The notes under the pieces were generated by a model that saw only the letters and a list, made by a program, of their open reading frames with translations, did no database searches and was not told the DNA's origin. Positions 1,044-43,858 of a stretch of 64,000 nucleotides of DNA are shown one piece after another; position 1 is the stretch's first letter, and every line of letters starts with the position of its first letter. Made by a program: the position numbers and the translations under genes. The stretch is from Eubacteriales bacterium (GTDB lineage: Bacteria > Bacillota > Clostridia > Oscillospirales > UMGS1783): positions 158,897 to 222,896 of the forward strand of contig JAZOAH010000028.1 in NCBI GenBank assembly GCA_045595395.1, read 5' to 3'.

Positions 1044-1170
1044 AAAAAAGACCTCCCTAATCATATGATATCTCTATCATAACACAAAAAAGAGAAAATG
1101 CAAACAGATTAAATAATTCTTTCCTTGTCTTTTTGTGTATTTCGTGATAAGATACCTTCGAGGTGTTTTG

Positions 1171-1938
1171 ATGAAAAAACCATGGATTCTATCCCTGTTT
1201 GCCGCCACACTGATCGTTGTCGGCGTCGGGTTATGTTTTATTTCCGCCTTTTTGGGCGATACTACCGATGATATTGAATTTATTCCCCTGCCCCAAGAAG
1301 AACTGGCCGCCTGCCCCGGCAGCGAGCCGCTCGAGCTGCGTCCGATTTCCAAACAAGAGCCGATCCCTCTGTCCAAGGCCGCCTACCGCCCGGCTGTGAG
1401 CGATGACTATTTTGATGATGCCCTCTTTATCGGGGATTCTCTCACCAACGGTCTGGAGTTGTTCGGCACTCTCAAGAACGCAGCCTATTTCTGCGCCACC
1501 AGCGCCACCGTTGCCGGCACCTTGGCCGCTCCGGCGCTGGATGAGCATCTGTCCACCCATTCCTACAACACCGTTTACCTCATGCTTGGCATCAATGAAA
1601 TGGGCACCAATCCTGCCGTCTACGCCGATCACATGGGACAGTTGATCGATCTGGTACGCAGCCGTCAGCCCCACGCTCGCATCTGCCTGCAGACCATTCT
1701 GCCTGTCGTACCCGAATTGACCTGGTCGGAAAAGGTCTTTTCGGTTGCCAACATTCAGGCCGCCAATGCCGCTCTGCGGCAACTGGCCGATACCAAACAA
1801 GTCACCTTAGTCGATACCTATTATGCCTTTGCCGACCAAGACGGCCGCATGCCCGACGGCGTGACCCGTGACGGCGTTCACCTGCAGGCCAAAAACTATG
1901 CCATTTGGTGTGATTATCTGCGCACCCACACCCCATAA
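1171..1938 (+). CDS. membrane-anchored SGNH/GDSL hydrolase
   Basis: N-terminal hydrophobic helix (ILSLFAATLIVVGVGLCFISAF), block I FIGDSLTNG and block V DGVHL. ATG 1171 follows a GAGGTG SD. Confidence 0.7.
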   Translation: MKKPWILSLFAATLIVVGVGLCFISAFLGDTTDDIEFIPLPQEELAACPGSEPLELRPISKQEPIPLSKAAYRPAVSDDYFDDALFIGDSLTNGLELFGTLKNAAYFCATSATVAGTLAAPALDEHLSTHSYNTVYLMLGINEMGTNPAVYADHMGQLIDLVRSRQPHARICLQTILPVVPELTWSEKVFSVANIQAANAALRQLADTKQVTLVDTYYAFADQDGRMPDGVTRDGVHLQAKNYAIWCDYLRTHTP

Positions 1939-7915: not shown

Positions 7916-8797
7916 TTACACATCCAATCCGTTTTCTCTCATAAGTCCAAGCAGTTTTTGCTCATTGGCCGACTCCATCGGCGTCAAGGGCAGACGCAGA
8001 ATATTGTCACACCAGCCCATGGCCGCACACGCCGCCTTGACCGGAATGGGGTTGACCTCGCAGAAGAGGGCATCGACCAGCGGCAACAACTTCAGTTGCG
8101 CCTCGCAAGCCGCCTTGACACGGCCCTGTGCAAAGTCACGGCACATCTGCGCCGTCTGCGCCGGCAAAATGTTGGACAGTACCGAAATAACACCCTTACC
8201 GCCCAGCGACATGACCGGCACGATCTGATCGTCATTGCCCGAATAGATATCAATATCACAGGCAGCCGCCACCTGGGCGATCTGCGAGATATTACCGCTG
8301 GCCTCCTTGATGGCCACGATGTTCGGATGCTTAGCCAACTCGGCCACAGTAGCCGGCAGCATATTACAGCCGGTACGTCCCGGTACATTATACAGAATGC
8401 ACGGCTTGGTCGATGCATCGGCAATGGCGGTAAAGGAGGCGATCAGTCCCTTTTGCGTCGCCTTATTATAATAAGGGGTCACCACCAGCATGGCATCGGC
8501 TCCCACCTCACAAGCATACTCGGTCAGTTCAATCGCATAGGCAATATCATTCGAGCCGGTGCCGGCAATAACGGGCACACGCCCCGCCACCTTTTCCACG
8601 CAAAAGCGAATGACCTCTTTATGCTCGGCATCGGTCAGGGTCGAGCCCTCGCCGGTCGTGCCGGCGGCAACGATGGCATCAATGCCCTGCTCGATCTGCC
8701 AATCGATCATAGCGCCGAAACGCTCATAATCGACACCCCCCTCATTCATCGGGGTGATAATGGCGGTGGCCGCTCCGGTAAATACTGTCTTTTTCAT
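7916..8797 (-). CDS. dapA: 4-hydroxy-tetrahydrodipicolinate synthase
   Basis: 293 aa, DapA/NAL family (GTTGEGSTLT, YNVPGRTG, IVAIKEASG). Confidence 0.9.
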   Translation of the reverse strand: MKKTVFTGAATAIITPMNEGGVDYERFGAMIDWQIEQGIDAIVAAGTTGEGSTLTDAEHKEVIRFCVEKVAGRVPVIAGTGSNDIAYAIELTEYACEVGADAMLVVTPYYNKATQKGLIASFTAIADASTKPCILYNVPGRTGCNMLPATVAELAKHPNIVAIKEASGNISQIAQVAAACDIDIYSGNDDQIVPVMSLGGKGVISVLSNILPAQTAQMCRDFAQGRVKAACEAQLKLLPLVDALFCEVNPIPVKAACAAMGWCDNILRLPLTPMESANEQKLLGLMRENGLDV

Positions 8798-8814
8798 CTT
8801 GCTTCTCCTTTGTA

Positions 8815-9025
8815 TACAGAAAGGCAGTCTCCACGGAGACTGCCTAAAAACAACAAAAGCGTTGATTCGATAGCACTCCGCATTGCTGCGACAGCAGGGC
8901 GGATATTCTCCGAACTGCCAGCCGAATGTCTTGCCAAAACATCCGCTTCGGCACCCTCACCTTTCCTCGGCGGCTTTGGCAGCCGTTTGTCCCCGAGTAC
9001 TCTTTTCAGGTGCGCCTCTATCTGT
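8815..9025 (-). promoter_or_regulatory. lysine (L-box) riboswitch with terminator expression platform
   Basis: The minus strand reads AUAGAGGCGC...AAGAGUA...GAGGAAAGGUGAGGGUGCCGAAGC...UGGC...CUGUCGC, which matches L-box conserved blocks. It is followed by the hairpin aggcagtctcc/ggagactgcct (8822..8845) and UUUCU, just upstream of the dapA ATG. Confidence 0.8.
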
Positions 9026-9033
9026 TTTTTATT

Positions 9034-9062
9034 ATTCTATCATGCGCATATGCGCTTGTCAA
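9034..9062 (-). promoter_or_regulatory. sigma-A type promoter of the lysine operon leader
   Basis: Minus strand TTGACA (9062..9057), 17-nt spacer, TAGAAT (9039..9034). The spacer contains the palindrome GCGCATATGCGC (9044..9055). Confidence 0.5.
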
Positions 9063-9064
9063 TA

Positions 9065-9715
9065 TTATTTCGTCATCTTTTCCTGCTTTACCTTATGGTC
9101 AATGACATGGCGAGAGGCCAACTCCCGATGGATATCCTCCAAAGAAATACCGTTCTGGATCATCAGCACCATCACATGATAAGCCAGATCGGCGATCTCA
9201 TAGATCGTTTCCTTCTTGTCATTGTCCTTGGCGGCAATGATGACCTCGGTGCACTCCTCGCCCACCTTTTTGAGGATCTTATCCAGTCCCTTTTCAAACA
9301 AATAGGTGGTGTAAGAGCCTTCCTTCTTGTCGGTCTTGCGCCCTTCGATCAGTTTCATCAGCCCCTGCAACGAGAACTCATGCAGTTCCTCGCTCTCCCA
9401 GATCGGATTTTCAAAGCAGGATTCGGTACCCAGATGGCAGGCGGGACCGTCGGGTTCAACCATAACGGTCAGCGCATCGTAGTCGCAATCGGCGGTGATG
9501 GATACGATATGCTGGTAGTTACCGCTGGTCTCTCCCTTCAACCACAGTTCCTGTCGGGAACGGCTCCAAAAACAGGTCAAGCCCTTCTCCATCGAGATGC
9601 GCAGGCTCTCCTCATTCATATAGGCCAGGGTCAGCACCCGCTTGGTCACGCCATCGACCACAATAGCAGGGATCAGTCCCTTTTCATCAAATTTCAGCTT
9701 GCTGATATCGATCAT
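9065..9715 (-). CDS. hisI: bifunctional phosphoribosyl-AMP cyclohydrolase / phosphoribosyl-ATP diphosphatase
   Basis: 216 aa. HisI block ([19 protein letters not shown]) fused to a HisE block ([20 protein letters not shown]). Confidence 0.9.
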
Positions 9716-10479
9716 TTTCTCAACCTTCTTGTTACAATGTTGTGTTGTGCCATGGCCTCTTTCAGGTCACCGATGGCCACCTCACCGAAATGGAAGATGG
9801 AGGCCGCCAGCCCGGCATCGACCTTAGGCAAGGTATGAAACAGGGTAATAAAATCTTCGATCTTACCGGCACCGCCCGAGGCAATGACCGGCACCGAAAC
9901 GGCATCGCAAACGGCGGCCAGCATCTCCAGATCAAAGCCGCCCTTGACTCCGTCGGTATCAATGGAATTGACCACGATCTCACCCGCACCGTTGTCCACG
10001 CCACGCTTGATCCACTCGATGGCCTCCAGCCCGGTATTCTCCCGGCCGCCCTTGGCAAAGACACGGAAGACCCCGTCGACTCGTTTGACATCGACCGACA
10101 AGACTACGCACTGATCGCCGTATCGCTCGGCCGCCTGACGGATCAGGTCGGGGTTGCGGATAGCGCCCGAATTGACGCTGACCTTGTCGGCGCCGCACTT
10201 GAGCACTCGGTCAAAATCCTCGACGGTATGGATGCCGCCGCCCACCGTCAGCGGAATAAAAACGCTCGATGCCGTTTGGCACAGGATGTCGGTAAAGAGT
10301 TTACGCCCCTCGGCCGATGCGGTGATATCATAGAAAACCAGCTCATCGGCGCCGTTTTGGCTATAAAATTTTGCCAGTTCCACGGGCGAGGATACATCGC
10401 TCAACCCCTGGAAATTGACCCCCTTGACCACACGGCCGTTGCGCACGTCAAGACAGGGTATGATTCTCTTGGTGATCAT
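9712..10479 (-). CDS. hisF: imidazole glycerol phosphate synthase, cyclase subunit
   Basis: [20 protein letters not shown] start, confirmed as ATG at 10479. The longer ORF-track start is an upstream extension into hisA. Confidence 0.9.
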
Positions 10480-11179
10480 GGATCGCTTTCTCCAAATCAA
10501 TAGCTCCGGTATAATAGGCCTTGCCGATGATGGCGCCGTAGATATCCAAAGCCGCCAGTTTTTCCACATCCTCCATCGAGGACACACCGCCCGAGGCAAC
10601 GATCTGCATCGAAAACCGCTCGGACAGTTCTTTGTATAAGGCGTGATTGGCACCACGCATGGCACCGTCACGCGAAATATCGGTACAGATCAAGGTGGTC
10701 ACGCCCCGCTTTTGCAGATCGGCGCAAAAGACAAAGGCATCCAGCCCCGACGACTCGGTCCAGCCCTTGACAGCCACACAGCCGTCCTTGATATCAACGC
10801 CGACGGCAATTCGATTGCCGTACTTCTTCAGCGCCTCATCCAAAAAGGCCGGATCTTGCACGGCGGCCGTACCAAGAATAACGCGGTCAATGCCGTTTGT
10901 CAAGTACCGATCGACCACTTCCATGCTGCGAATGCCGCCGCCCACCTCACAAAACAGGCCGGTGGCTTGCTTGATGGCGCAGACAGTGGTCAGGTTAGGG
11001 GTTGTGCCGCTTTTGGCACCCTCCAGATCGACCAGGTGGATATGAGTCGCTCCTTTGCTGGCAAAATCACCTGCTACCGCCACCGGATCATCGTGATAGA
11101 CCGTCATTTGGGCATAGTCGCCCTGAAACAGGCGCACCGCTTTTCCCTCAAACAGATCAATAGCCGGAAACAGATTCAT
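10448..11179 (-). CDS. hisA: ProFAR isomerase
   Basis: MNLFPAIDLFEGKAVRL start and HisA family body. ATGA overlap with the hisH stop. Confidence 0.9.
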   Translation of the reverse strand: MNLFPAIDLFEGKAVRLFQGDYAQMTVYHDDPVAVAGDFASKGATHIHLVDLEGAKSGTTPNLTTVCAIKQATGLFCEVGGGIRSMEVVDRYLTNGIDRVILGTAAVQDPAFLDEALKKYGNRIAVGVDIKDGCVAVKGWTESSGLDAFVFCADLQKRGVTTLICTDISRDGAMRGANHALYKELSERFSMQIVASGGVSSMEDVEKLAALDIYGAIIGKAYYTGAIDLEKAIHDHQENHTLS

Positions 11180-11796
11180 GCCCAATCCTCCCTCTCGCAA
11201 AAGGCACGCAGGATACTCAGCCCCACATCGCCGCTCTTTTCGGGATGGAACTGGCAGCCCAGCACATTGCCCTTGGCCACCGCCGCCGTTAAGGGTGCGC
11301 CGTACTCGGCCGTGGCAATGACCGCATCCTTGCAGTCAGCATAGTAGGAATGGACGAAATAGACGGCATCCCCCTCTTCGACCTTCTCAAACAGTGGATG
11401 CTTGTTTTCTCCGAAGTGTAGCCCGTTCCAGCCGATATGCGGGATCTTATAGCCGGGCGGCACCACATCGGCAATGGGACGAATAGCACCGGGGATCAGG
11501 CCCAAGCCTTGATGAAAGCCATACTCATAACTCTTTTCAAACAGCATCTGCATACCCAGGCAAATGCCCATGACCGGCTTGCCCTTTTGGGCCTGTTCGA
11601 TCACCAGATTGCCCAAGCCGCTGTCCCGCAGCTTGCGGGCGGCATCGCCAAAGGCTCCCACCCCGGGTAGGATCAAACGGTCGGCCTTGCGGATCACATA
11701 CGGATCGTCGGTCGCCACCGCATCGGCACCAATGGCCGCAAAGGAACTGTGCAGGGAAAAGAGATTGCCCACGCCGTAATCAACAATGGCGATCAT
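11176..11796 (-). CDS. hisH: imidazole glycerol phosphate synthase, glutaminase subunit
   Basis: 206 aa class I amidotransferase (MGICLGMQ, FHPEKS). Confidence 0.9.
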   Translation of the reverse strand: MIAIVDYGVGNLFSLHSSFAAIGADAVATDDPYVIRKADRLILPGVGAFGDAARKLRDSGLGNLVIEQAQKGKPVMGICLGMQMLFEKSYEYGFHQGLGLIPGAIRPIADVVPPGYKIPHIGWNGLHFGENKHPLFEKVEEGDAVYFVHSYYADCKDAVIATAEYGAPLTAAVAKGNVLGCQFHPEKSGDVGLSILRAFCEREDWA

Positions 11797-12383
11797 GCCA
11801 GAACTCCTTTCGTGGACGGCACCTCGTCGGCAAATTTCTCATCTACCGAAACGGCGGTACGCAGGCTGCGAGCCACCGACTTAAAAGCACCCTCAATGAT
11901 GTGGTGAGAATTCTCGCCGGCCAGTTTGCGGATGTGCAGGGTGCAGGCACAGTTGCGGGTAAAGCCCAGCCAGAATTCCTGCACAAGCTCGGTATCGAAT
12001 GTCCCCACCTTCTCGGTCGGGATAGCCATATCCATATACAGCCCACAGCGTCCCGACAGATCAACGGCACTCAAGATCAGTGCCTCATCCATCGGCAACA
12101 TGCAGTCGCCGTAGCGGCGAATGCCCTTTTTATCGGCCAGCGCCTCGGCAAAGGCCTTACCCAGCGCAATGCCGATATCCTCCACCGTGTGATGATCGTC
12201 AACCCGGGTATCCCCTTGACAGGACACGGTCAGATCAAAACGGCCGTGCGAGGCAAAGAGAGTGAGCATATGATCAAGAAAACCGCAGCCGGTTTCGATG
12301 GTCGAAGTACCGCTGCCGTCTATGTTGAGCGAAAGGACGATATCGGTCTCGTTGGTCTTTCTGGTCAGTAAGGATGTTCTCAT
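11793..12383 (-). CDS. hisB: imidazoleglycerol-phosphate dehydratase
   Basis: 196 aa with IGPD motifs (RKTNETDI, DDHHTVEDIGIALG, HHIIEGAFK). Confidence 0.9.
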   Translation of the reverse strand: MRTSLLTRKTNETDIVLSLNIDGSGTSTIETGCGFLDHMLTLFASHGRFDLTVSCQGDTRVDDHHTVEDIGIALGKAFAEALADKKGIRRYGDCMLPMDEALILSAVDLSGRCGLYMDMAIPTEKVGTFDTELVQEFWLGFTRNCACTLHIRKLAGENSHHIIEGAFKSVARSLRTAVSVDEKFADEVPSTKGVLA

Positions 12384-13444
12384 CGGTTCTCCTCCATGAT
12401 TTGTGTAATGGTGTCGAGCAAAATCTGCATTTGCTCGTCACTGCCTACCGTAATACGGTTATACTCCTTCAGCCGGGGGGTATCAAAATGACGGATCAAC
12501 ACGCCCCGCTCCTTGAGGCTCAGATATAATTGCTTGCCGTCGATAGCCGGATGCTTGGCAAAGAGGAAATTGGCACGGGAGTCCAGCACCTCAAACCCCA
12601 GCGTTTTCAAGGCTTTTGCCGTGTTTTCTCTGGTCTGCATGACGGTGCGGCAATTGGCACGGGTGTACGCTTCATCCTCCAGCACACCAAGGCCGGCGGC
12701 CATGGTCATGCGGTTGATGTTATAGGGGTTGGTGGAATATTTGACGGTGTTCAGATCCTGAATGAGCGCCTGATTGCCAACACCAAATCCCAATCTGGCA
12801 CCCGCCATCGAACGGGATTTGGAGAAGGTCTGGGTCACCAGCAGATTATCGTATTGGTCAATCAACGTGCAGGCACTTTCGGCGCCGAAATCAACATAGG
12901 CCTCGTCCACCACAACGATACGGTCGGGGTTGCTTTGCAGCAACCTTTCAATATCGGAAAGAGGCAGGCAAAGACCGGTCGGGGCGTTGGGATTTGCCAA
13001 AAAAATGGTGCCTTTTGCCTCAAAAAAGGACTCTAAATCGACCGAAAAATCGTTTTTTAGGGCTATTTTTTGATAAGAAACGCCGTTTAACTGGGCAAAA
13101 ACCTCATAAAATCCGTAGGTTATGTCACAAAATACGGCCGGATTTTGCTCATCACAAAAGGCCATAAAGGCAAAATTCAGGATCTCGTCCGAGCCGTTGG
13201 TGAGCAGCACCTGCTCCGACTTAACGCCGCACAGGTCGGCCACCTTTTGGGTGAGTGCGGTACACTCAGGGTCGGGATACAGATGCAGATCTTTAGCCGC
13301 AGCCGCCGCATAAGCCTGTGCTTTCGGCGAGGGCGGGAAGGGCGACTCGTTGGTGTTGAGTTTGACATACTGCATATCTTTGGGCTGTTCCCCCGGTGTA
13401 TAGGGGGTCAGCGCCGCATATTTTTGAGAAAAAAATCGACTCAT
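12380..13444 (-). CDS. hisC: histidinol-phosphate aminotransferase
   Basis: 354 aa class II aminotransferase (KLNTNESPFPPSP, TFSKS). Positioned within the his operon. Confidence 0.9.
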   Translation of the reverse strand: MSRFFSQKYAALTPYTPGEQPKDMQYVKLNTNESPFPPSPKAQAYAAAAAKDLHLYPDPECTALTQKVADLCGVKSEQVLLTNGSDEILNFAFMAFCDEQNPAVFCDITYGFYEVFAQLNGVSYQKIALKNDFSVDLESFFEAKGTIFLANPNAPTGLCLPLSDIERLLQSNPDRIVVVDEAYVDFGAESACTLIDQYDNLLVTQTFSKSRSMAGARLGFGVGNQALIQDLNTVKYSTNPYNINRMTMAAGLGVLEDEAYTRANCRTVMQTRENTAKALKTLGFEVLDSRANFLFAKHPAIDGKQLYLSLKERGVLIRHFDTPRLKEYNRITVGSDEQMQILLDTITQIMEENR

Positions 13445-14721
13445 TTCTTATCCTCTTGGCGCACGGTAGCGCTCTTGGCGTGGGCGGTCAGTCCCTCTTG
13501 TGTGGCAAAATAGGCCACATCCTCGGCCACACGCTCCAGGGCTGCGGCGGTGTAATAGGTGTACTGGGTCTTTTTGATAAAATCGTCGACCGACAGCGGG
13601 CTGGAAAACTTGGCCGTGCCCGAGGTAGGCAGGGTGTGGTTGGGGCCGGCAAAATAATCGCCCAAGGCTTCGGGGCAGTTGCGCCCCATAAAGATGGAGC
13701 CGGCATGGCGGATGCTGTCCAGATAATCAAAGGGGTTATCAACGCACAGTTCCAGATGCTCGGGTGCGATCTCATTGGCGATCTCGATGGCGGCCGACAG
13801 ATCCTCGGCCACGATGATCTTGCCGTTGTTATCAATGGATGCACGGGCAATCTCGGCACGTGACAGTTGCGGGATCTGCACTTCAAGCTCCTCCTGTACC
13901 GCCTTGGCCAGATCCATCGAATCGGTGACCAGCACAGCGCTGGCCAGCTTATCATGCTCGGCCTGGGAGAGCAGATCGGCCGCCACATGGCGGGGGTTGC
14001 TCTTGCCGTCGGCCACCACCAAAATTTCACTGGGGCCGGCGATCATATCAATGGAAACGACACCGAAGACCTGCTTTTTAGCTTCGGCCACAAAGGCATT
14101 GCCCGGGCCGACGATCTTATCGACCTTGGGCACACTCTCGGTACCGTAAGCCAGGGCGGCCACCGCCTGAGCGCCGCCGACCTTGAAGATCTGATCAATA
14201 CCGGCGATCTTGGCCGCCGCCAAAATGACGGGATTGACCTTACCGTCAGCCGACGGGGGTGTGACCATGACCACCTGCTTGACCCCGGCGATCTTGGCAG
14301 GGATGGCATCCATCAGCACGGTGGAAGGATAGGCGGCTGTACCGCCCGGCACATACAGACCGGCACGATCGACCGGAATGATCTTCTGGCCGATGACGAT
14401 ACCATCCTCATCGTTGATGATAAAGGAATTTCTGACCTGTTTTTCGTGGAATTTGCGGATGTTGGCCGCCGCCCGCTCAAGAATATCCAAAAATCGGGGC
14501 GAAACCTGCGCCACCGCCTCTTCCATCTCGGCGGCAGACACCTGCAAGTCGGTTAACTTGGCCTTATCAAATTTTTCGCAATATTCGTACAGGGCCGCAT
14601 CTCCGCGCACCCGCACATTGGCTATGATATCGGCTACGATATCCTCGACATTGACCGCCAGCTCGACACGAGCGAAGATCTCATCGTTGGATACCTGACC
14701 GTATTCTAAAATCTCAATCAT
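13441..14721 (-). CDS. hisD: histidinol dehydrogenase
   Basis: 426 aa, HisD family (GPGNAFVAEAK, SQAEHD, APEHLEL). Confidence 0.9.
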   Translation of the reverse strand: MIEILEYGQVSNDEIFARVELAVNVEDIVADIIANVRVRGDAALYEYCEKFDKAKLTDLQVSAAEMEEAVAQVSPRFLDILERAAANIRKFHEKQVRNSFIINDEDGIVIGQKIIPVDRAGLYVPGGTAAYPSTVLMDAIPAKIAGVKQVVMVTPPSADGKVNPVILAAAKIAGIDQIFKVGGAQAVAALAYGTESVPKVDKIVGPGNAFVAEAKKQVFGVVSIDMIAGPSEILVVADGKSNPRHVAADLLSQAEHDKLASAVLVTDSMDLAKAVQEELEVQIPQLSRAEIARASIDNNGKIIVAEDLSAAIEIANEIAPEHLELCVDNPFDYLDSIRHAGSIFMGRNCPEALGDYFAGPNHTLPTSGTAKFSSPLSVDDFIKKTQYTYYTAAALERVAEDVAYFATQEGLTAHAKSATVRQEDKK

Positions 14722-18383: not shown

Positions 18384-18767
18384 TCACAGGATAAACGAGG
18401 TGTTGCCACGCAGAGCATTGAGCATGACGGTGGCGCTTCCGACGTTGGTAGCCAAGGGGATGCGCTGGACATCGCACAGGCGCAGCAGGGCCGATACGTC
18501 GGGCTCATGGGGCTGGGCGGTGAGGGGGTCACGCAGGAAGATGATAAAATCGATATTGCCGTCGGCCAGCATAGCGCCGATCTGCTGGTCGCCGCCGAGC
18601 GGGCCGCTCTTCATGCGTTTGATGGCAAGGCCGGTCTCGCCCATAATGAGGGTGCCGGTGGTGCCGGTGGCGTAGAGTTCGTGCTTGGCCAGGACATCCT
18701 GATATGTTTTTGATAATTCGATCATTTCATTTTTCTTTTTATCGTGAGCAATCAGAGCGATTTTCAT
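18384..18767 (-). CDS. mgsA: methylglyoxal synthase
   Basis: 127 aa with [18 protein letters not shown] and [10 protein letters not shown] motifs. Confidence 0.9.
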
Positions 18768-18836: not shown

Positions 18837-18865
18837 TGGACAAATGCACCAATATGTGATATACT
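18837..18865 (+). promoter_or_regulatory. candidate promoter of lipoprotein gene
   Basis: TGGACA (18837..18842), 17 nt, TATACT (18860..18865). A 5' UTR hairpin gacgga/tccgtc lies at 18876..18891. Confidence 0.4.
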
Positions 18866-18911
18866 GTCGAAAAATGACGGACTCATCCGTCAATAAAAAA
18901 GGAGAATTGCT

Positions 18912-20618
18912 ATGAAGAAGATCTTATGTACGATCCTGGCGCTGGCCCTGCTTCTTTCTCTGGCCGCTTGCGGCTCGGGCGAGATCACGGCGGCTACCGA
19001 AGAGCAGTTGGCCAAGTTTAATTTCACGGCCGCTCAGGTGGATAAGACGCAGAATCTTACTCTGACCTGGGACAACGGCACAGACCTGAAGGCGGTCGAT
19101 GTGGCCGTGAAGTACGGCGATGTCTCGCTGGGCGGGATCACCGCAGAGGGCGCAGCCGGACAGACCGAGCTGATGGCCCGTTACGGCAAGTACACGCTGG
19201 ATATTGTTGCCACCCAAAAGAACAACAAGAAATTCCGTGTAGAGACCGAAGTTGCTTTGGCAGCTGATAAATACATCATCGCCCCCATCTCCGGCTCGAT
19301 GCCGCAGTTGTATTTTACCCTGAATCTTGATGAAATTACCAACAACGGACAGACGCCTGCCTTTGTGTGGCTGGCCCGTCCCGACAGCTGGAACTGGGAG
19401 AATCTGCCCAAAAACGTATTTATGATGCCGACCGCCTCCCGTGAAGAGGTGCTGACTCATAATAACTATGATCGTATGATGGAAGCGACCAAGGCTTACA
19501 TTGCCGATCTGTATGCCGTCAATCCGGATGCTACCTTTGAATTGTATATCAATGATTTCAATGCCTATGCCTATGTGGATCTGCTCATCGGCAACGGCGT
19601 GCCTGAGGAGAATTTCTATGTAACGCTGCTGTCGGACGGCGGCGCGTCCTACACGGCATTTAACAAGGCTTTCAATCCTGACGATGCCGCTTTTGATGCC
19701 GATGCCAAGTATGCCGATATGGCATCGAAGCTGGGCAAGGTTTACGACGAGGTGAAAGAGGCCGGTGGCTACACCTACACCGGTGATTACACCGTTTCGA
19801 CCGATGAATTTACCCAGTACTGCTATGTAGCGGCTAAAGAGAAGACCAATGTAGAATGGTGGGTGCTGCGCCCGCGTGCCGGCGTGCTCTGCTCGCCCGA
19901 CCAGGAGTTTATCGACCGTGTTCTCAATGAAGAGGTCAGCAAGTCCCCCTATGAGGCCGAGAACAGCATCATTGAGGAGCGCAACTTTGCTGCGCCGCTG
20001 ACGGCCATGAACGATGAGCAGAAAGCCGATCTTAAGGCGCTGTACAACTTCAACGGCGAGTTGTTTGAGAAGGCGGATCAGGATGGCAAGAAGGCCATGA
20101 TGATCCTGGGCAGCTGGGCTACCGCTGAAAATGAGCCTGATTTTGCGGCCTATGTCAATCTTGTCAAGCTGGTTTACGGCGACGAGTTCGTTTACTACTA
20201 CAAGGGACATCCCAACACCCCGACCAGTACCGTGCCCGAGAAGCAGGAGCAGCTGAAGGAGCTTGACCTGATCGATGTTGAGTCCTCCATCAATGCCGAG
20301 TTGATCCTCTTCTTCTACCCTGACATTTATATGTGCGGCTACAACTCTTCGACCTTTATGTCGGTTGAGAGTGAGGAAATGGCCTGTGCCATCTTCAACA
20401 TGACCAAGGAGCAGGCGGCCGAGAATGAAGGCACCGAGAACTACCGTGAACTGATCGGGCTGTATCTGTCGGCCATCGAGGATACCTCGCTTTATGCCGA
20501 GTGCACCGAGGCCGAGCATGAGTATTTCCTCATCGAGTACAACAACACCGAATCGGAATTTGCCTATTCGATCTACGACGCCACCGCCAATACCATTATT
20601 GACGGACCTAAGGCGTAA
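18912..20618 (+). CDS. surface lipoprotein with GT80 (PM0188-type) sialyltransferase-like domain
   Basis: Lipobox LSLAAC-G at residue 20. Blocks FELYINDFNAYAYVDLL, LLSDGGASY (D/E-D/E-G-like), YYYKGHPNT (HP motif), NAELILF and GYNSSTF (SS motif) follow the order and spacing I recall for Pasteurella PmST1. Confidence 0.5.
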   Translation: MKKILCTILALALLLSLAACGSGEITAATEEQLAKFNFTAAQVDKTQNLTLTWDNGTDLKAVDVAVKYGDVSLGGITAEGAAGQTELMARYGKYTLDIVATQKNNKKFRVETEVALAADKYIIAPISGSMPQLYFTLNLDEITNNGQTPAFVWLARPDSWNWENLPKNVFMMPTASREEVLTHNNYDRMMEATKAYIADLYAVNPDATFELYINDFNAYAYVDLLIGNGVPEENFYVTLLSDGGASYTAFNKAFNPDDAAFDADAKYADMASKLGKVYDEVKEAGGYTYTGDYTVSTDEFTQYCYVAAKEKTNVEWWVLRPRAGVLCSPDQEFIDRVLNEEVSKSPYEAENSIIEERNFAAPLTAMNDEQKADLKALYNFNGELFEKADQDGKKAMMILGSWATAENEPDFAAYVNLVKLVYGDEFVYYYKGHPNTPTSTVPEKQEQLKELDLIDVESSINAELILFFYPDIYMCGYNSSTFMSVESEEMACAIFNMTKEQAAENEGTENYRELIGLYLSAIEDTSLYAECTEAEHEYFLIEYNNTESEFAYSIYDATANTIIDGPKA

Positions 20619-20635
20619 ATCCAAGAAGGAAAAAG

Positions 20636-20663
20636 GAGCAAGCGAAATGCTTGCTCTTTTTTT
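20636..20663 (+). terminator. rho-independent terminator after lipoprotein gene
   Basis: gagcaagc/gcttgctc stem with a 5-nt loop, then TTTTTTT. Confidence 0.7.
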
Positions 20664-20665
20664 AT

Positions 20666-21148
20666 TTACCAGGTGCGGACGCCGTCGATGTGGATGAAGC
20701 GGACCTGGTCGTAGTTGTAACTGGACAGCGGGCGGTCGAGTGCGTCGTAGGTGTGGGCTGCCACTAAAATTTGCGGACGTACTGACAGGATGACGGGTGT
20801 GTGGTAAAAGCTGCCGTCGCTGCGGCCGAGCTGGACGATGTCGCCCGGCATGATTTCCTGCTGTGACACACGGTGGCCGTAAGGGCCGACCGAGCGGTTG
20901 TTGACCAAAAAGTTATAGAGATATTCCACGCCCGTCCAGGCGGCGGCACGGTCGTTGACCGAAATGTAGTACCAGCCGGTCTCGGGGGTATAGTTCATGA
21001 CGCCGGCGCCGGCATAGATGCACTGGGATGCAAAATTGGTGCAGTCACCGCCGATGTTTTCAAAATCATAATAGGCCGAGTTGCGGCTTAGTGCCCAGCG
21101 GCGGGCATAGGCGACCATCGCAGTGCGGTTATAGGGAATTTCTCGCAT
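20666..21148 (-). CDS. putative amidase domain protein (Amidase_6-like, NlpC/P60-like Cys/His)
   Basis: 160 aa from MREIPYN (ATG 21148 behind GGAGGTGA). Carries GGDCTNFASQC and a later FYHTPVI. No signal peptide. Confidence 0.55.
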   Translation of the reverse strand: MREIPYNRTAMVAYARRWALSRNSAYYDFENIGGDCTNFASQCIYAGAGVMNYTPETGWYYISVNDRAAAWTGVEYLYNFLVNNRSVGPYGHRVSQQEIMPGDIVQLGRSDGSFYHTPVILSVRPQILVAAHTYDALDRPLSSYNYDQVRFIHIDGVRTW

Positions 21149-21214: not shown

Positions 21215-21215
21215 G

Positions 21216-21755
21216 TTAAAAGGATTCTTTGTAGGGACCGGAGAGTTTTTGCAGGATATACCGATAAATATCGGCGGCGTTATCCTTAAAATTCTCGCCG
21301 GTTGAGAAGGCAAATTCCTGCGAGGGCAACGCAATCTCCAGTTTGAAGAGCAGGTCGTCGCCGTCGGTTAAGGAACATTCGGCGATATACTGGCCATCCC
21401 GTTCAAAGGTGCGGACATGGGTACCGCTGCGACGGTCGATCATGCTGAGCAGTTCCATAGCGCCTTTAAGGGCACGGTCTCTGGCCCAGATGGGCAGGCG
21501 AGGCGCCAATTCCTTGACCGCCTCGTAGCCGAGTCTGGTCAAGACGGTGACTCCCTCCTCTACATCGACGGCAATATGGCCGGTGCTGATCAGCTCATCG
21601 ATCGCCTCTTTCAGCGTGAAATATTCAACGATCTCCGAATTGAGGAACAGATCGACCATGGCACGGGTGGGGATGGCGCGATTGAGCTTGCTTAAGGTAT
21701 ATAGAATAAGGATCTTGACATCCTCTTTTTCATGAAGTCTTCCGCCTTCGAGCAT
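21216..21755 (-). CDS. DUF4364 family protein
   Basis: 179 aa from MLEGG (ATG 21755 behind GGAGGTGA). The N-terminus KILILYTLSKLNRAIP is typical of the Clostridia DUF4364 family as I recall it. Confidence 0.5.
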   Translation of the reverse strand: MLEGGRLHEKEDVKILILYTLSKLNRAIPTRAMVDLFLNSEIVEYFTLKEAIDELISTGHIAVDVEEGVTVLTRLGYEAVKELAPRLPIWARDRALKGAMELLSMIDRRSGTHVRTFERDGQYIAECSLTDGDDLLFKLEIALPSQEFAFSTGENFKDNAADIYRYILQKLSGPYKESF

Positions 21756-21860
21756 ACGATCACCTCCGTGATGAACTTTATTATACCATAGCAGCCGTAA
21801 CAAATACAAGGCTTTCCCAATAAAATGTATCGAGATCAATTTTCTTGGGAGTGAAAACCA

Positions 21861-22919
21861 ATGGGTATTTTGGGTGAAAGTTTTTTGGGAGTCAACTGCG
21901 AAAGCGGTTTTTACTCCCTTTACCAGGAGTTTGTTGACCGTCGGGCGCATGTCTTTGTCATCAAGGGCGGCCCGGGCACCGGCAAAAGCACACTGATGCG
22001 ACAACTGGCGGCGCAGGCCTGCGACAAGGGGCTTGATGTTGAACTGCTGCACTGCTCGTCCGATCCCGATTCCTTGGATGCGGTATACCTGGTACAGACC
22101 AACACCTGCATTTTGGACGGAACACCGCCCCATGTGATCGAGCCGCCCTATCCGGGGGCTGTGGGGCAGCTGATCGACCTATATCCCTTTTGGGATAACA
22201 ACATACTGGAAGAGAACACGGCGCAGATCAAGCAGATCAACCGCCGAATCAGCACGCTTTATTCCCGCATCTATCTCTACTTAGGGGCAGCCGGCCGTCT
22301 GCAACGGGATCTGACCGGCATCGGCTCCACCCTGCTCAACCGTGCCAAACTGCGTGGCTATACCGAGCGGCTGTGTGCCCGCTACATTCGGCAGCGCATC
22401 GGCAATCCGACCGAGGAAAAGCGATTTTTCACCGCCTTTACTCCCCAAGGGGTGACCTTTTATCCGCCGCAGGGCAAAAACATCGAAAAACAACTCGTCC
22501 TTGAAGACGAATACGGGTTGATGTCACGGATGTTGGAGGCGGTGCGGCTGCGGGCGATCAAGGCCAATCACCATGTCATCAGCGGCTACTCACCCCTCAT
22601 CCCCGACCAGCTGACTCACCTGATCCTGCCCGATGCCGGGCTGATGCTCTGCCTGTCCAATTCCATTCATAAAATGGAGGCACAGCCCTACTGTCGCATC
22701 CATATCTCCCGTTTTCTTGACACGGTGGCCGAGGCGCAACACAAGGAAAAACTCGGATTCCTACGGCGCAGCCGAGATGAGATCCTCAAAGAGGCCTGTG
22801 AGCTGCTGGCCAGCTGCCATGAGGAGCATGACCGCCTGGAGGATTTTTACAAGGCGGCCGTTGACTATCCGGCGCTGACTGCCTACACCAAAACCTTGGC
22901 CCAGCGCATCCTGCGCTGA
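21861..22919 (+). CDS. P-loop ATPase of the PRK06851-like family, function unknown
   Basis: Walker A IKGGPGTGKSTLM followed by LLHCSSDPDSLDAV and DGTPPHVIEP. This matches a conserved Bacilli/Clostridia hypothetical ATPase family. Confidence 0.55.
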   Translation: MGILGESFLGVNCESGFYSLYQEFVDRRAHVFVIKGGPGTGKSTLMRQLAAQACDKGLDVELLHCSSDPDSLDAVYLVQTNTCILDGTPPHVIEPPYPGAVGQLIDLYPFWDNNILEENTAQIKQINRRISTLYSRIYLYLGAAGRLQRDLTGIGSTLLNRAKLRGYTERLCARYIRQRIGNPTEEKRFFTAFTPQGVTFYPPQGKNIEKQLVLEDEYGLMSRMLEAVRLRAIKANHHVISGYSPLIPDQLTHLILPDAGLMLCLSNSIHKMEAQPYCRIHISRFLDTVAEAQHKEKLGFLRRSRDEILKEACELLASCHEEHDRLEDFYKAAVDYPALTAYTKTLAQRILR

Positions 22920-24252: not shown

Positions 24253-24276
24253 AGGCGACCGATTGGTCGTTGTCAA
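24248..24276 (-). promoter_or_regulatory. consensus sigma-A promoter of dinB
   Basis: Minus strand TTGACA (24276..24271), 17 nt, TATAAT (24253..24248). Confidence 0.6.
24257..24268. promoter_or_regulatory. operator copy O2 (GACCGATTGGTC; arms CGACC/GGTCG)
   Basis: Exact 12-nt repeat lying inside the 17-nt spacer of the dinB promoter. Confidence 0.55.
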
Positions 24277-24305
24277 GAGAAATGTTGCAGGAGGAATTCA
24301 AAAAA

Positions 24306-24689
24306 ATGAGATGCGGAGAAAAGATCAGGCAATTACGGGAAGGCGCACACATGAGCCAGACCGAACTGGCCAACATGCTGGGGGTCTCGTTGCGCACCGT
24401 ACAGCGTTATGAGCAGTGCGAGCGCATTCCGGCCGCCGATGTTTTGGTGCATATCGGTAGTATTTTTGATGTAACCAGCGAATCCATGCTCAGCGATGAG
24501 GATCTGTTTATCAACGCAGCCGCCAAGCTAGGTGCCCGATCAGCGCTCCAGGCGAGGGAGTTGGTCAATGCCGTTGGCGGGTTGTTTGCCGGCGGCGAAC
24601 TGAGCGAAGAGGATAAAGATGCGGTGATGCAGGCAATCATGGAAGCCTATTGGGATGCCAAGGCACGCAACACGCAAAAGAAGGGATAA
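24306..24689 (+). CDS. XRE-family helix-turn-helix transcriptional regulator
   Basis: 127 aa from MRCGEKIRQLREGAHMSQTELANMLGVSLRTVQRYE (HTH_3). ATG 24306 follows a CAGGAGG SD. Confidence 0.8.
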   Translation: MRCGEKIRQLREGAHMSQTELANMLGVSLRTVQRYEQCERIPAADVLVHIGSIFDVTSESMLSDEDLFINAAAKLGARSALQARELVNAVGGLFAGGELSEEDKDAVMQAIMEAYWDAKARNTQKKG

Positions 24690-24691
24690 CG

Positions 24692-25204
24692 ATGGCGCAA
24701 CAGTATATTCACGGCATAGCACAGGAGTTGGTCGAACGATTCGGCACTCGCGACCCCTTTGCCATTGCCGAAGGCTTAGGCGCACATGTGAAGTTGGTGG
24801 ACAACTTTGTCAATCTCAAGGGCATGTACCGTGTCATTTTAGGTGAGCGATACATCTTTTTAAGCAGCCATTTAGACGAGCAGACCCAGCGCATCGTCTG
24901 CGCACATGAGTTGGGACACGATCAGCTGCATCGGACATTGGCTACCGATAACATCATACGGGAGTTTATGTTGTATGATATGAAGTCCCGTCCCGAATAT
25001 GAAGCCAATCTCTTTGCCGCCGCCTTGCTGCTGGACGATCGAAGTGTCAGCGAGTGTGCTGCTGACGGCTGTGATGTTGTCCAAACGGCCATGCGGCTGG
25101 AAACCGACATCAATCTGGTGCTGATCAAAATGGCGCAGATGAATGAACGTGGCTATCATTTTAATCCACCGGAGCGCTCGGACACAGCCTTTTTGAAGCA
25201 TTGA
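24692..25204 (+). CDS. ImmA/IrrE family metallo-endopeptidase
   Basis: 170 aa with the HEXXH motif in CAHELGHDQLH. Starts 2 nt after the XRE gene stop. Confidence 0.8.
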   Translation: MAQQYIHGIAQELVERFGTRDPFAIAEGLGAHVKLVDNFVNLKGMYRVILGERYIFLSSHLDEQTQRIVCAHELGHDQLHRTLATDNIIREFMLYDMKSRPEYEANLFAAALLLDDRSVSECAADGCDVVQTAMRLETDINLVLIKMAQMNERGYHFNPPERSDTAFLKH

Positions 25205-25228
25205 ACGAGAATATTTACATGTAAAAAA

Positions 25229-25259
25229 GCGGACACCGCTATGCGGTATCCGCTTTTTT
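25229..25259. terminator. bidirectional terminator between immA-like gene and tRNA-Arg
   Basis: gcggacaccgc/gcggtatccgc stem with one mismatch, flanked by AAAAAA and TTTTTT. Confidence 0.65.
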
Positions 25260-25335
25260 GGCGCGCTGTAAGGGATTCGAACCCCTGACCTACTGGTCCG
25301 TAGCCAGTCACTCTATCCAGCTGAGCTAACAGCGC
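25259..25335 (-). tRNA. tRNA-Arg (anticodon ACG)
   Basis: Minus strand folds as a cloverleaf: GCGCTGT acceptor, GCTCAGCTGGATAGAGT D-arm, anticodon loop CT-ACG-GA, GGTTCGAATCC T-arm, encoded CCA. Confidence 0.9.
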
Positions 25336-29682: not shown

Positions 29683-29719
29683 AAAAGGACGGAGCATTTT
29701 GCCCCGTCCTTTTATTTTT
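29683..29719 (+). terminator. rho-independent terminator after csp
   Basis: aaaaggacgg/ccgtcctttt stem, then ATTTTT. Confidence 0.65.
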
Positions 29720-30371
29720 ACAAGCTCAGCAAAAATCCCTCTAAGCGATCGGCAAGGATCTGCTGACCGGCATCGTTGGGATGCAGACCATCGGGCACAT
29801 ACTTTTCTTGAATGACCGGGATGCGTGGCTGCAGACCCGACATTTTGAATAGGTCGAGCACCGGCAAGGCCATATACTCGGCCGTGCGGCGGATGATATC
29901 GACATGTTCCGAAAGTTTGGCCACCGGCAGCGGCTTGCAGTCACCCGAAAGGCTGTCCTCGGTGCAGCGGTGCAAGGGGGTCATGATCACATACACGGCG
30001 TTGGAATTGTGCTCGATCAGGCTCTTCATAAAGCAGAAGCAGGCGCCGCAGAAGGTCTCGGGCGTGGTGTCACCCCACTGGCCGAAAGGCGCATCCCCGT
30101 GCCCGAAATCGTTGGTGCCGCCGAAGAATACGACGATCTCGGCATCACGAGGCAGATCCTTGATGCGGGACAGAAAATCTTTGTCAAAAGAAGGCGTTGC
30201 ACTCGGATGATTCTGAGGGGCGATGCGAGTGCCGGAGATGCCATCTACGTACAGATCCCAATGGTGCTTCTTGGCCAGGATGGCATGATAGAGCGCATCG
30301 GGGCCTGAGGTGCCGACACCCTCGGTGATGCCGTCACCCAGAACAGCAACTTTGCGATTTTTGAGTTCCAT
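29718..30371 (-). CDS. SGNH/GDSL hydrolase family protein
   Basis: 217 aa with VAVLGDGITEG (block I variant), GGTNDF and DGLHPN blocks. Confidence 0.7.
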   Translation of the reverse strand: MELKNRKVAVLGDGITEGVGTSGPDALYHAILAKKHHWDLYVDGISGTRIAPQNHPSATPSFDKDFLSRIKDLPRDAEIVVFFGGTNDFGHGDAPFGQWGDTTPETFCGACFCFMKSLIEHNSNAVYVIMTPLHRCTEDSLSGDCKPLPVAKLSEHVDIIRRTAEYMALPVLDLFKMSGLQPRIPVIQEKYVPDGLHPNDAGQQILADRLEGFLLSL

Positions 30372-43744: not shown

Positions 43745-43770
43745 CTCTTTGTATTCGAATCAACTCACCT

Positions 43771-43798
43771 TATTATATCATAATTCCTCGTAATTTCA
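43771..43798 (-). promoter_or_regulatory. promoter of downstream PBP gene
   Basis: Minus strand TTGAAA (43798..43793), 16 nt, TATAAT (43776..43771). Confidence 0.45.
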
Positions 43799-43814
43799 AG
43801 CATATCCTAAAAAT

Positions 43815-43850
43815 AAAACAGAAAACCGGATCATGCGACCCGGTTTTTTG
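43815..43850 (-). terminator. rho-independent terminator after upstream PBP gene
   Basis: aaaaccgg/ccggtttt stem followed on the minus strand by a U-rich tract. Confidence 0.6.
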
Positions 43851-43858
43851 TCATTCTT

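Follow-up and report, generated by a model that had tools for sequence, protein, structure and literature searches.

A gene in the window (the whole stretch of 64,000 nucleotides that was analysed) encodes a 568-residue exported protein that is, with high confidence, a GT80-like homologue with GT-B fold and a retained nucleotide pocket. Taken as a whole, our data are best explained by an exported GT80-like lipoprotein that moves sialic acid outside the cell via a CMP-linked intermediate, an explanation to which we give a probability somewhat short of even. The protein is not a one-off, as the label "orphan" in an earlier note on this DNA had suggested, but belongs to a large exported family of gut monoderms.

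The reading frame for the 568 amino acids is present as described in the earlier note, and its base composition supports it (GC3 of 0.69 versus GC2 of 0.36 across 18912..20618). With a promoter-like site, a Shine-Dalgarno sequence and a terminator-like hairpin of its own (Table 1), the gene would be a monocistronic unit. A terminator scan placed the same hairpin (20636..20667) on the opposite strand, and it may therefore work bidirectionally. Pfam annotation of the approximately 50 genes in the 64-kb window found housekeeping functions only and no sialic-acid genes, in agreement with the previous statement that neuA, neuB, neuC and other CMP-sialic acid genes are missing from it. A DHDPS-family gene (7916-8797) was considered as a possible NanA and rejected, since it belongs to a lysine operon that also includes a diaminopimelate dehydrogenase gene (6187-7164) and lysA (4904-6190).

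Table 1. Features of the GT80-like lipoprotein gene and its product, in window positions
Feature	Positions	Strand	Basis
Promoter-like site TGGACA, 17-nt spacer, TATACT, TG extended -10	18837..18865	+	Consensus scan, 10/12 matches; putative function
Shine-Dalgarno AGGAG	18900..18904	+	7 nt ahead of ATG; direct sequence reading
GT80-like lipoprotein CDS	18912..20618	+	ATG start, 568 aa, TAA stop 20616-20618; ORF list
Signal peptide and lipobox L17-A18-A19-C20	18912..18971	+	Cys20 codon TGC 18969-18971; sequence
Ig-like all-beta domain, residues ~24-117	18981..19262	+	AF2 strands 25-116, pLDDT 81-96
N-terminal Rossmann-like half of GT-B module, residues ~118-378, acceptor side	19263..20045	+	AF2 alternating strand/helix; Foldseek; hhalign over 236-378
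S241-D242-G243, catalytic-base loop	19632..19640	+	Counterpart of PmST1 D140-D141-G142; hhalign pairs YVTLLSDGGASY with QLNLYDDGSMEY
C-terminal Rossmann-like half, residues ~379-525, nucleotide-binding side	20046..20486	+	HMM alignment to PmST1 and P. dagmatis ST; hhalign; partial Pfam PM0188 match 420-517
G400, counterpart of PmST1 G266, end of strand before nucleotide pocket	20109..20111	+	hhalign; 144/145 conserved
K431-G432-H433-P434, (F/Y)KGHP "HP motif"	20202..20213	+	Counterpart of PmST1 K309-G-H311-P; K, H, P each 144/145
E463, counterpart of PmST1 E338	20298..20300	+	A2 profile alignment and hhalign; 143/144 conserved
S479-S480, "SS motif", counterpart of PmST1 S355-S356	20346..20351	+	Ser/Thr at 137/144 and 142/144
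C-terminal beta extension, residues ~526-568	20487..20615	+	AF2 strands 538-543, 552-556, 561-564, pLDDT 90-97
Intrinsic-terminator-like hairpin GAGCAAGC-GAAAT-GCTTGCTC, then TTTTTTTATTT	20636..20667	+	Sequence

The protein is very probably extracytoplasmic. In its N-terminus (M-K-K-I-L-C-T-I-L-A-L-A-L-L-L-S-L-A-A-C-G-S), MKKILCTILALALLLSLAAC fits the lipobox pattern [LVI][ASTVI][GAS]C, with LAAC at residues 17-20, and the AF2 model places a helix at residues 2-19. The clean lipobox LSLAAC that had been reported to end at residue 20 is borne out by the TGC at codon 20 and by the invariance of Cys20 among 48 close relatives (alignment A1). An NCBIfam search with the 568-residue protein yielded nothing beyond weak matches to lipoprotein signal models. 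In the family, 236 of 267 members (~88%) carry an export signal (signal peptide, lipobox or signal anchor). Exported by the Sec/Lsp route, the protein would, given the predicted lipidation, have Cys20 as its anchor on the outward-facing side of the cytoplasmic membrane in a gut Clostridium.

Evidence for the fold comes from an AlphaFold (AF2) model with a pLDDT of 89.5 and a pTM of 0.81. Its confidently modelled all-beta segment (residues 25-116) agrees with the earlier guess of an N-terminal Ig-like beta domain of about 100 residues, and the Foldseek alignments to 2z4t and 4r83, Photobacterium enzymes with three domains, include this domain in their 504-519 columns. What follows the Ig-like domain would be a two-lobed GT-B module, remotely homologous to PmST1 and the Photobacterium alpha-2,6-sialyltransferase. 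In Foldseek searches against the PDB, GT80 sialyltransferases take all of the first 13 places (E 3.6e-14 to 2.4e-9, probability 1.00), led by the Photobacterium enzymes with Ig-like and GT-B parts; the proposal of a GT-B fold of GT80 type is thus supported by both the model and the structural matches. Identity between the protein and the GT80 structures is only 12-16%, and the Foldseek TM-scores are modest (0.40-0.61).

At the level of sequence, the kinship shows once diverse relatives are brought into the comparison. The earlier note had suggested a search with the PM0188 HMM. Pfam PM0188 (PF11477) matches the 568-residue protein alone over residues 420-517 only, with 17.4 bits (E = 0.0023), below the gathering cut-off of 25 bits. 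Among the 48 relatives of the close-family alignment A1, 31 match PM0188, weakly (best E 1.3e-6). One relative (P0079) bears a precomputed PF11477 label. The profile of the more diverse alignment A2, with 70 members, retrieves GT80 chains and nothing else from the PDB sequences (12 of 12, E 1.2e-4 to 5e-3). An hhalign comparison with PmST1, in a sequence that matches 2ex0_A at 875 bits, gives an E-value of 4.5e-6 and brings all four catalytic motifs into one colinear alignment. Only the family profile and the structural comparison make the GT80 kinship significant. Because of the sub-threshold PM0188 score and the low identity to GT80 enzymes, the family appears to be a distant sister clade of these enzymes.

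Should the short motifs have come together by chance in a protein unrelated to GT80, one would point to the single-sequence Pfam match below threshold (E 0.0023) and to the PDB sequence searches with single-sequence phmmer and the A1 profile, both of which gave no match. However, three independent methods concur against chance, namely Foldseek (3.6e-14), hmmsearch with the diverse profile (1.2e-4) and hhalign (4.5e-6), so that this reading has a negligible probability and is already effectively refuted. Significant HMM and structural matches, whose absence the earlier note had said would count against its assignment, were found by the A2 profile, hhalign and Foldseek.

The motifs quoted in the earlier note all lie where it had placed them: FELYINDFNAYAYVDLL at residues 209-225, LLSDGGASY at 239-247 (D242 at nt 19635-19637), YYYKGHPNT at 428-436 (H433 at nt 20208-20210), NAELILF with E463 at 461-467, and GYNSSTF at 476-482 (S479-S480 at nt 20346-20351). 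As it had also observed, HP is followed by an Asn (Asn435) instead of the Arg. The equivalence that it had drawn to the GT80 motifs is borne out by hhalign, which places D242, H433, E463 and S479-S480 on D141, H311, E338 and S355-S356 of PmST1; the A2 profile alignment agrees for the HP motif, the Glu and the SS motif. In the AF2 secondary structure, a strand gives way to a helix at each motif, as it does in GT80 enzymes, and the D242 loop comes after strand 235-240 and before helix 245-254. The PmST1 counterpart of G400, G266, has a role in cytosine contact. In GT80 enzymes, the His of the HP motif is near the CMP phosphate and the Lys near the cytosine (PMC5517516, PMC4202792), a Glu of the E338 type makes a bidentate contact to the 2'/3'-OH of the CMP ribose (PMC7540698, PMC5517516), and the SS motif makes phosphate contacts (PMC7540698, PMC4202792). 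The module retains the predicted base Asp D242 together with the whole CMP-contacting set (G400, K431, H433, E463, S479-S480), and its cleft would bind CMP or a CMP-activated nonulosonic acid.

Among family representatives, D242 is kept in 146 of 147 and G243 in all 147. Of 142 representatives with pairwise identity of at most 50%, 140 have the whole hexad D242, G243, K431, H433, P434 and E463, among them all 68 long multi-domain members, a pattern that speaks for strong purifying selection on the catalytic and CMP-contacting residues. Not everything follows GT80: the first acidic position of the D/E-D/E-G motif is not acidic (S241 versus D140 in PmST1; Ser in 55, Thr in 14 and Tyr in 1 of the 70 members), and D215, in the N-terminal Rossmann-like half, is a family-specific invariant (147 of 147).

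The family comprises approximately 400 clusters at 50% identity, nearly all from animal-gut Clostridia, with humans, rodents, ruminants, rabbits and birds as the host animals; the homologues found number at least 148. All 77 genome loci retrieved with the close-family alignment A1 stem from animal-gut monoderm bacteria. Members are fused to SLH, ChW, ricin-B lectin, fn3, BspA-LRR (LRR_5), Listeria-Bacteroides repeats and GH85_C. Clustering of 890 ORFs revealed no neighbour conserved across the 77 loci, and without such a partner we rejected operon-based functional inference; the most recurrent neighbours are an ABC exporter, seen at 12 loci, and a GH2-like gene, seen at 10, within one closely related subclade. 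An apparent tandem paralogue in Sellimonas (L076, 11470-13809) was also rejected, as it clusters via shared ChW repeats and has a YkuD domain and no GT80-like core. Genes for sialic-acid uptake, catabolism or donor synthesis do not recur near the homologues in the 77 loci, and there are none in the window. What is new here, as far as sequences can tell, is a large exported GT80-like family in gut Clostridia with cell-wall and lectin-module fusions and with the key residues intact in 140 of 142 representatives. Our literature search found no report of GT80/PM0188 in Firmicutes or of extracellular Gram-positive sialyltransferases.

To our knowledge, there is no CMP-sialic acid pool outside a monoderm cell, and for this reason we judge a reverse, CMP-mediated route to be the most likely one. 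The protein would act on host or dietary glycans outside the cell and move their sialic acid: sialic acid of a sialoside would be transferred back onto a catalytic CMP, and the resulting CMP-Neu5Ac would then give up its sialic acid to water, for a net sialidase reaction, or to another galactoside, for a net trans-sialidase reaction. That such a CMP-mediated sialidase or trans-sialidase reaction is the physiological one is a tentative suggestion, with a probability clearly below even. There are precedents for the chemistry. The sialidase activity of the Photobacterium GT80 enzymes goes up with the CMP concentration and is stopped by alkaline phosphatase, and Pd-ST has trans-sialidase activity (PMC4521712); trans-sialidase activity has been attributed to reverse transfer via transient CMP-Neu5Ac (PMC7540698). 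Several observations count against the explanation as a whole. In the GT80 enzymes characterised so far, reverse transfer is a side-activity. W270, the Trp on which the acceptor stacks in PmST1, lacks a conserved counterpart and the first acid of D/E-D/E-G is Ser/Thr, so the sugar or acceptor specificity could differ. PM0188 is sub-threshold, identity is 12-16% and TM-scores are 0.40-0.61, and neither the window nor the 77 loci provide a genomic tie to sialic-acid uptake or catabolism.

The conserved catalytic base and the complete CMP-binding set would also suit an extracellular Leloir sialyltransferase that captures CMP-Neu5Ac or another CMP-nonulosonate from the host or from neighbours and caps the cell's own galactose-terminated surface glycans, the same strategy as that of Neisseria gonorrhoeae Lst. 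Export signals and module fusions support the surface location that this requires, and the SLH/ChW wall-binding fusions would keep the enzyme beside the cell's own surface polymers. Yet the lumen of the rumen or colon has no known source of CMP-sialic acid, and physiological concentrations in the host are reported to be very low (about 0.02-0.5 ug/ml, PMC4324315). Carriers of the family are widespread among the commensals of ruminants, rodents, birds and humans and are not mucosal pathogens, and donor-synthesis genes were not found in the window or near homologues (77 loci), so we consider such an enzyme unlikely. The same problem of donor supply outside the cell burdens the idea that the nucleotide scaffold was kept while the chemistry or the sugar changed, with Kdo, legionaminic acid, pseudaminic acid or another nucleotide-linked group being placed onto the cell's own wall polymers or S-layer. 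The differences from GT80 on the acceptor side (S/T for the first acid, unconserved W270, invariant D215) would fit it, as would the weak matches to the polysialyltransferase family PF07388 in 10 of 48 members. Beta-Kdo transferases are also among the HP-motif GT-B enzymes (PMC5517516), and Neisseria Lst is reported to transfer Kdo (PMC8092323). However, the best structural neighbours are GT80 enzymes only, not Kdo transferases or TagF-like enzymes, among the best Foldseek matches listed, and the ricin-B, fn3 and GH85_C fusions resemble those of exoenzymes active on host glycans, which makes a change of chemistry rather unlikely.

If there is no donor outside the cell, the protein might also be a dead enzyme that serves as a surface adhesin for sialoglycans or galactosides; its surface location would fit this, as would the adhesin-type modules (LRR_5, Listeria-Bacteroides repeats) that are joined to relatives. 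Pseudo-enzymes usually lose their catalytic residues, whereas D242, K431, H433, P434 and E463 are retained here in 140 of 142 clusters, whose sequences are down to 25-35% identity. In GT80, moreover, the counterpart of E463 touches the nucleotide ribose only (PMC7540698), a contact that a lectin would not need. An adhesin is for these reasons highly improbable.

GT-B Leloir glycosyltransferases are normally cytoplasmic, because their donors are made there. An exported GT80-like family, anchored to the membrane or wall of monoderm cells, could mean either an extracellular supply of CMP-sialic acid in the gut, or a reverse, CMP-catalysed reaction as the main job. If the latter were true, the family would represent a new enzyme class for foraging on host sialoglycans and possibly for surface mimicry. 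In its most far-reaching form, the proposal would give gut commensals a first trans-sialidase/sialidase system with a GT-B fold and with CMP as cofactor: cell-surface enzymes of monoderms, descended from a sialyltransferase scaffold, in which bound or scavenged 5'-CMP acts as a shuttle that strips sialic acid from host mucins or milk glycans and possibly re-attaches it to the cell's own surface. This is a speculation that we think has a small but appreciable chance of being correct. If true, it would amount to surface sialylation that is independent of nucleotide sugars and mechanistically unrelated to GH33. The family could also yield sialoside-remodelling catalysts for chemoenzymatic synthesis, and, with Sellimonas catena JCM 35622 as a cultured carrier, it is accessible to experiment.

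Among known systems, the closest in structure are two GT80 enzymes, the alpha-2,6-sialyltransferase of Photobacterium sp. JT-ISH-224 (2Z4T, E 3.6e-14) and sialyltransferase 0160 of P. damselae (4R83, E 3.8e-14), which have the same three-part layout of an N-terminal Ig-like domain followed by two GT-B lobes. Their hosts are marine Gammaproteobacteria, unlike the gut Clostridia here, and the marine Photobacterium GT80 enzymes may have lipoprotein-type signals; the literature searched contained no statement that they are lipoproteins. Their sialidase activity is stimulated by CMP (PMC4521712). Identity to them is 12-14%, and the TM-scores of 0.45-0.53 together with a large rmsd indicate that lobe orientation and insertions differ. 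They share the Asp-Gly loop, KGHP, the ribose-binding Glu and the SS motif with our protein (see also PMC4202792), in which the first acid of DDG is a Ser. PmST1/PM0188 (2EX0, 2IHZ; GT80, PF11477) also has the GT-B fold (Foldseek E about 1e-10), and hhalign equates D242 with D141, K431 with K309, H433 with H311, P434 with P312, E463 with E338 and S479/S480 with S355/S356. It differs in lacking the Ig-like domain, in its identity of 15-16%, in having Arg313 where the family is variable (G/A/N/K; Asn435 here), and in Trp270, which is not conserved. PmST1 is multifunctional, with sialyltransferase, sialidase and trans-sialidase activities (PMC4202792).

For the GT38 polysialyltransferases (PF07388, e.g. 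Mannheimia haemolytica PST), the sequence links are thinner: PF07388 matches are weak in 10 of 48 relatives (best E 2.6e-7), the 568-residue protein has no Pfam match to this family, and GT38 chains occur neither in the A2-profile PDB search at E <= 10 nor among the best 50 Foldseek matches listed. GT38 enzymes are cytoplasmic, membrane-associated capsule polymerases. They have D/E-D/E-G and HP motifs and CMP-binding principles in common with GT80 and GT52 (PMC5517516). GH33 sialidases, IT-sialidases and the trypanosomal trans-sialidase offer a possible functional analogy, since they remove or relocate sialic acid on host glycans outside the cell and are, like the members of the GT80-like family, frequently fused to lectins or CBMs; in contrast, they are unrelated beta-propellers with a retaining hydrolase mechanism that does without a nucleotide. 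A 2023 review described trans-sialidase as so far unreported in gut bacteria (PMC10017367). The nearest functional precedent for a sialyltransferase outside the cytoplasm is Neisseria Lst (GT52). It belongs to another CAZy family, is not among the best 50 Foldseek matches listed, is exposed on the outer membrane of a diderm mucosal pathogen, and has neither an Ig-like domain nor cell-wall-binding fusions. Like our candidate, however, it has the HP motif, the GT-B fold and a place outside the cytoplasm; it is an alpha-2,3-sialyltransferase that can use donor scavenged from the host (PMC4324315).

Structural comparison and profile searches together show that the window protein is homologous to the GT80 sialyltransferases. 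Its AlphaFold2 model, built from an alignment of 48 relatives, is confident (pLDDT 89.5, pTM 0.81), and the top 13 Foldseek matches of the model in the PDB are all GT80 entries, with no other family among them, in line with the GT80 reading of the earlier note. The best is the Photobacterium sp. JT-ISH-224 alpha-2,6-sialyltransferase (2Z4T, E 3.6e-14, 519 columns), followed by the P. damselae enzyme (4R83, E 3.8e-14); the P. dagmatis enzyme and Pasteurella PmST1 are also in the top 13, at about 1e-10. Among the matches listed, those after GT80 have E >= 5e-7, query TM <= 0.17 and low query coverage, as expected for single-domain matching, many of them being multi-domain glycoside hydrolases. 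By sequence, the relation is significant only once relatives of the window protein are included. The HMM search against Pfam PM0188 proposed in the earlier note leaves the window protein alone below threshold (17.4 bits where the cut-off is 25, E 0.0023, with residues 420-517 matched to profile positions 285-379), but gives a match for 31 of the 48 relatives (52-91% identity, best E 1.3e-6). The PF07388 alpha-2,8-polysialyltransferase model is matched by 10 of the 48 (best E 2.6e-7). PDB sequences gave no match with the window protein alone, and GT80 chains only (12/12, E 1.2e-4 to 5e-3) with a profile of 70 diverse family members, 25-91% identical to it. Alignment of the family profile by hhalign with PmST1, whose query sequence matched 2ex0_A end-to-end (875 bits), was single and colinear (222 columns, E 4.5e-6, probability 87%).

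GT80 catalysis and CMP binding are defined by an Asp base in the D/E-D/E-G motif, an HP motif, a ribose-binding Glu and an SS motif (PMC4202792, PMC5517516, PMC7540698). Because hhalign pairs these very residues with their PmST1 counterparts (see table), the motif assignment made from the sequence was correct, down to the Asn in place of Arg after HP, and all motifs quoted for it lie at the residues and nucleotides named. The alignment shows a predicted catalytic base and CMP pocket that are intact; for the predicted pocket geometry, the basis is homology together with the secondary-structure context. Conservation was assessed in 150 representatives with <=50% mutual identity, 142 of which cover all motif regions: D242, G243, K431, H433, P434 and E463 are all kept in 140 of the 142, and in all 68 representatives of more than 700 aa.

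Features of the GT80-like gene and its flanks, and residues of its product aligned with PmST1
Feature	Position	Strand	Basis
GT80-like lipoprotein gene	18912-20618	+	ORF, 568 aa
Promoter-like site TGGACA-17 nt-TATACT, TG upstream of TATACT	18837-18865	+	consensus scan
Ribosome-binding site AGGAG, 7 nt ahead of ATG	18900-18904	+	sequence
GC-rich hairpin, then TTTTTTTATTT, 3' of GT80-like gene	20636-20656		sequence
Methylglyoxal synthase gene, upstream neighbour	18384-18767	-	Pfam annotation
Amidase_6 gene, downstream neighbour	20666-21334	-	Pfam annotation
PmST1 Q135-LNLYDDGSME-Y146	Y236-VTLLSDGGAS-Y247		hhalign
PmST1 D141	D242		hhalign
PmST1 G266	G400		hhalign
PmST1 K309-G-H311-P312	K431-G-H433-P434		hhalign
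PmST1 R313	N435		hhalign
PmST1 E338	E463		hhalign
PmST1 S355-S356	S479-S480		hhalign

The layout is that of a predicted exported, membrane-tethered protein with Ig-like and GT-B parts. The N-terminus MKKILCTILALALLLSLAAC closes with the lipobox LAAC, as already placed at residue 20, and its Cys20 is invariant across 48 close relatives. In the model, the signal helix is followed by an all-beta domain (25-116), where an Ig-like domain had been guessed, then by two lobes of alternating strands and helices, and finally by a short beta extension at the C-terminus. Since opposite-strand genes flank it on both sides, the gene is monocistronic. Its would-be 5' UTR contains, between promoter-like site and ribosome-binding site, a 7-bp hairpin (TGACGGA-TGAG-TCCGTCA, 18875..18892), listed by the scan as a minus-strand terminator-like site. 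An antisense open reading frame of 566 aa (18924..20624, -) spans nearly the whole gene and is most likely a "shadow" of the high sense-frame GC3 (0.69), not a gene.

When 1.84 billion representative proteins were searched exhaustively, the family came to 398 clusters at E <= 1e-3, with 176 passing E <= 1e-30. Lengths of 700-1300 aa are common among them, and the modules added in long members (SLH, nine ChW repeats, Listeria-Bacteroides repeats, fn3, BspA-type LRR, a GH85 C-terminal domain, 7-8 ricin-B lectin repeats) are all of extracellular or wall-binding types. Of the family proteins, 267 have a Met start, and 236 of these open with a signal peptide, lipobox or signal anchor; the others are mostly visibly truncated or have mis-called starts. 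All 77 recovered genome loci belong to animal-gut monoderm bacteria, with sources including water buffalo, yak, roe deer, sheep rumen, human, mouse, rabbit and chicken. The cultured Sellimonas catena JCM 35622 contributes one locus (L076; NZ_CP173695.1), in which two adjacent genes occupy 8039..13809. The product of the first is a family member of 1138 aa, with the GT80-like core after nine ChW repeats; that of the second, directly downstream, has 779 aa and joins nine ChW repeats to a YkuD L,D-transpeptidase domain. Both are wall-anchored enzymes, with the anchoring module in common. One cluster (P0284 / cluster of P0146, 1106-1132 aa, nine ChW repeats) comes, by its annotation, from a gut Eggerthellaceae MAG (Actinomycetota), so that the family is not strictly limited to Clostridia; either horizontal transfer between gut monoderms or a binning error could explain this. 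Public names are "hypothetical" or none; the one exception is a label from JGI, "uncharacterized protein YjdB". A literature search found no paper describing the family.

Pfam annotation of the 64-kb window gives housekeeping genes only (his and lys operons, ilvE, trmO, mgsA, penicillin-binding proteins, EF-G and others), with no neuA, neuB or neuC, as noted earlier, and no nan gene or sialidase; its sole DHDPS-family gene (7916-8797) is within the lysine operon. Among 890 neighbouring ORFs clustered from the 77 loci there is no conserved partner (best cluster in 12/77; a GH2-like neighbour is limited to one closely related subclade). The GT80-like gene is an orphan family-wide, and for want of a conserved partner its context gives no functional clue. 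The locus of a relative 91% identical to the window protein (L078; GCA_054288225.1, JAZPCE010000179.1) has a syntenic left flank (hisZ-like, TrpR-like, trmO, ilvE-like, mgsA), whereas DUF4956 and VTC stand directly downstream in place of Amidase_6, which indicates a rearrangement breakpoint directly after the terminator.

Elsewhere in the window, a DUF4364 ORF (21216..22133, -) has a 139-residue N-terminal extension without Pfam match and overlaps the start of a divergent STAND-like ATPase gene (21861..22919, +) by ~270 nt; translation of DUF4364 probably starts further in, near 21716. A repressor-like gene of the HTH_3 type (24270-24689) and a Peptidase_M78 (ImmA/IrrE-type) gene (24650-25204) overlap, with tRNA-Arg(ACG) (25259-25335) directly after the pair and GC content falling to 0.496 around 24270..25335; the arrangement is typical of the immunity module in a prophage or integrative-element remnant beside a tRNA. 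Two tandem class A penicillin-binding proteins (transglycosylase and transpeptidase; 1042 and 718 aa; 40616..46015, -) adjoin an HGSNAT-type membrane acyltransferase gene (46059-47084). GDSL/SGNH-family hydrolases, a family that includes sialate O-acetylesterases, are encoded at 1135..1938 (+) and 29718..30371 (-), both distant from the GT80-like gene.

We infer that the substrates of the window protein are extracellular glycans, on which it would act at residues of sialic (or a related nonulosonic) acid. Because cells make CMP-sialic acid internally, an exported sialyltransferase-like enzyme faces a donor difficulty. The gut lumen is rich in sialoglycans and, to our knowledge, has no CMP-Neu5Ac pool; for a commensal living there, this favors a reverse, CMP-catalyzed route over transfer from a scavenged donor, which we consider unlikely. 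In the reverse route, a host or dietary sialoside would give up its sialic acid to catalytic CMP, and the sialic acid would then be passed to water or another galactoside. Photobacterium GT80 enzymes, the best structural matches of our model, have a sialidase activity that CMP raises in a concentration-dependent way and that alkaline phosphatase abolishes, and Pd-ST has trans-sialidase activity (PMC4521712), ascribed in GT80 to reverse transfer via transient CMP-Neu5Ac (PMC7540698). CMP-mediated reverse transfer is thus our leading, if tentative, reading, held at less than an even chance.

An altered sugar or chemistry is slightly less likely than the scavenged donor. A lectin-like pseudo-enzyme that only binds glycans is very improbable, being disfavored by the conservation of residues that contact the nucleotide only, which argues for a predicted working active site for CMP or a CMP-sugar. 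According to a 2023 review, trans-sialidase has not been reported in gut bacteria (PMC10017367), and confirmation of CMP-mediated reverse transfer would therefore be a significant result.

The fold and catalytic kit of the window protein are of an already known kind. What is new is a large GT80-like clade in monoderm gut bacteria, a Leloir-type GT-B enzyme that is predicted to be systematically exported and anchored to the wall, and departures from GT80 in the acceptor-side motifs. Solved GT80 enzymes share only 12-16% identity with the window protein, with TM-scores of 0.40-0.61 (Foldseek); the first acidic position of D/E-D/E-G is Ser or Thr family-wide; the counterpart of PmST1 Arg313 is variable (G/A/N/K), the acceptor-stacking Trp270 of PmST1 is not conserved, and an invariant Asp215 (147/147) is specific to the family. 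For these reasons we assign the window protein to a distant sister clade and do not count it as a regular GT80 member.
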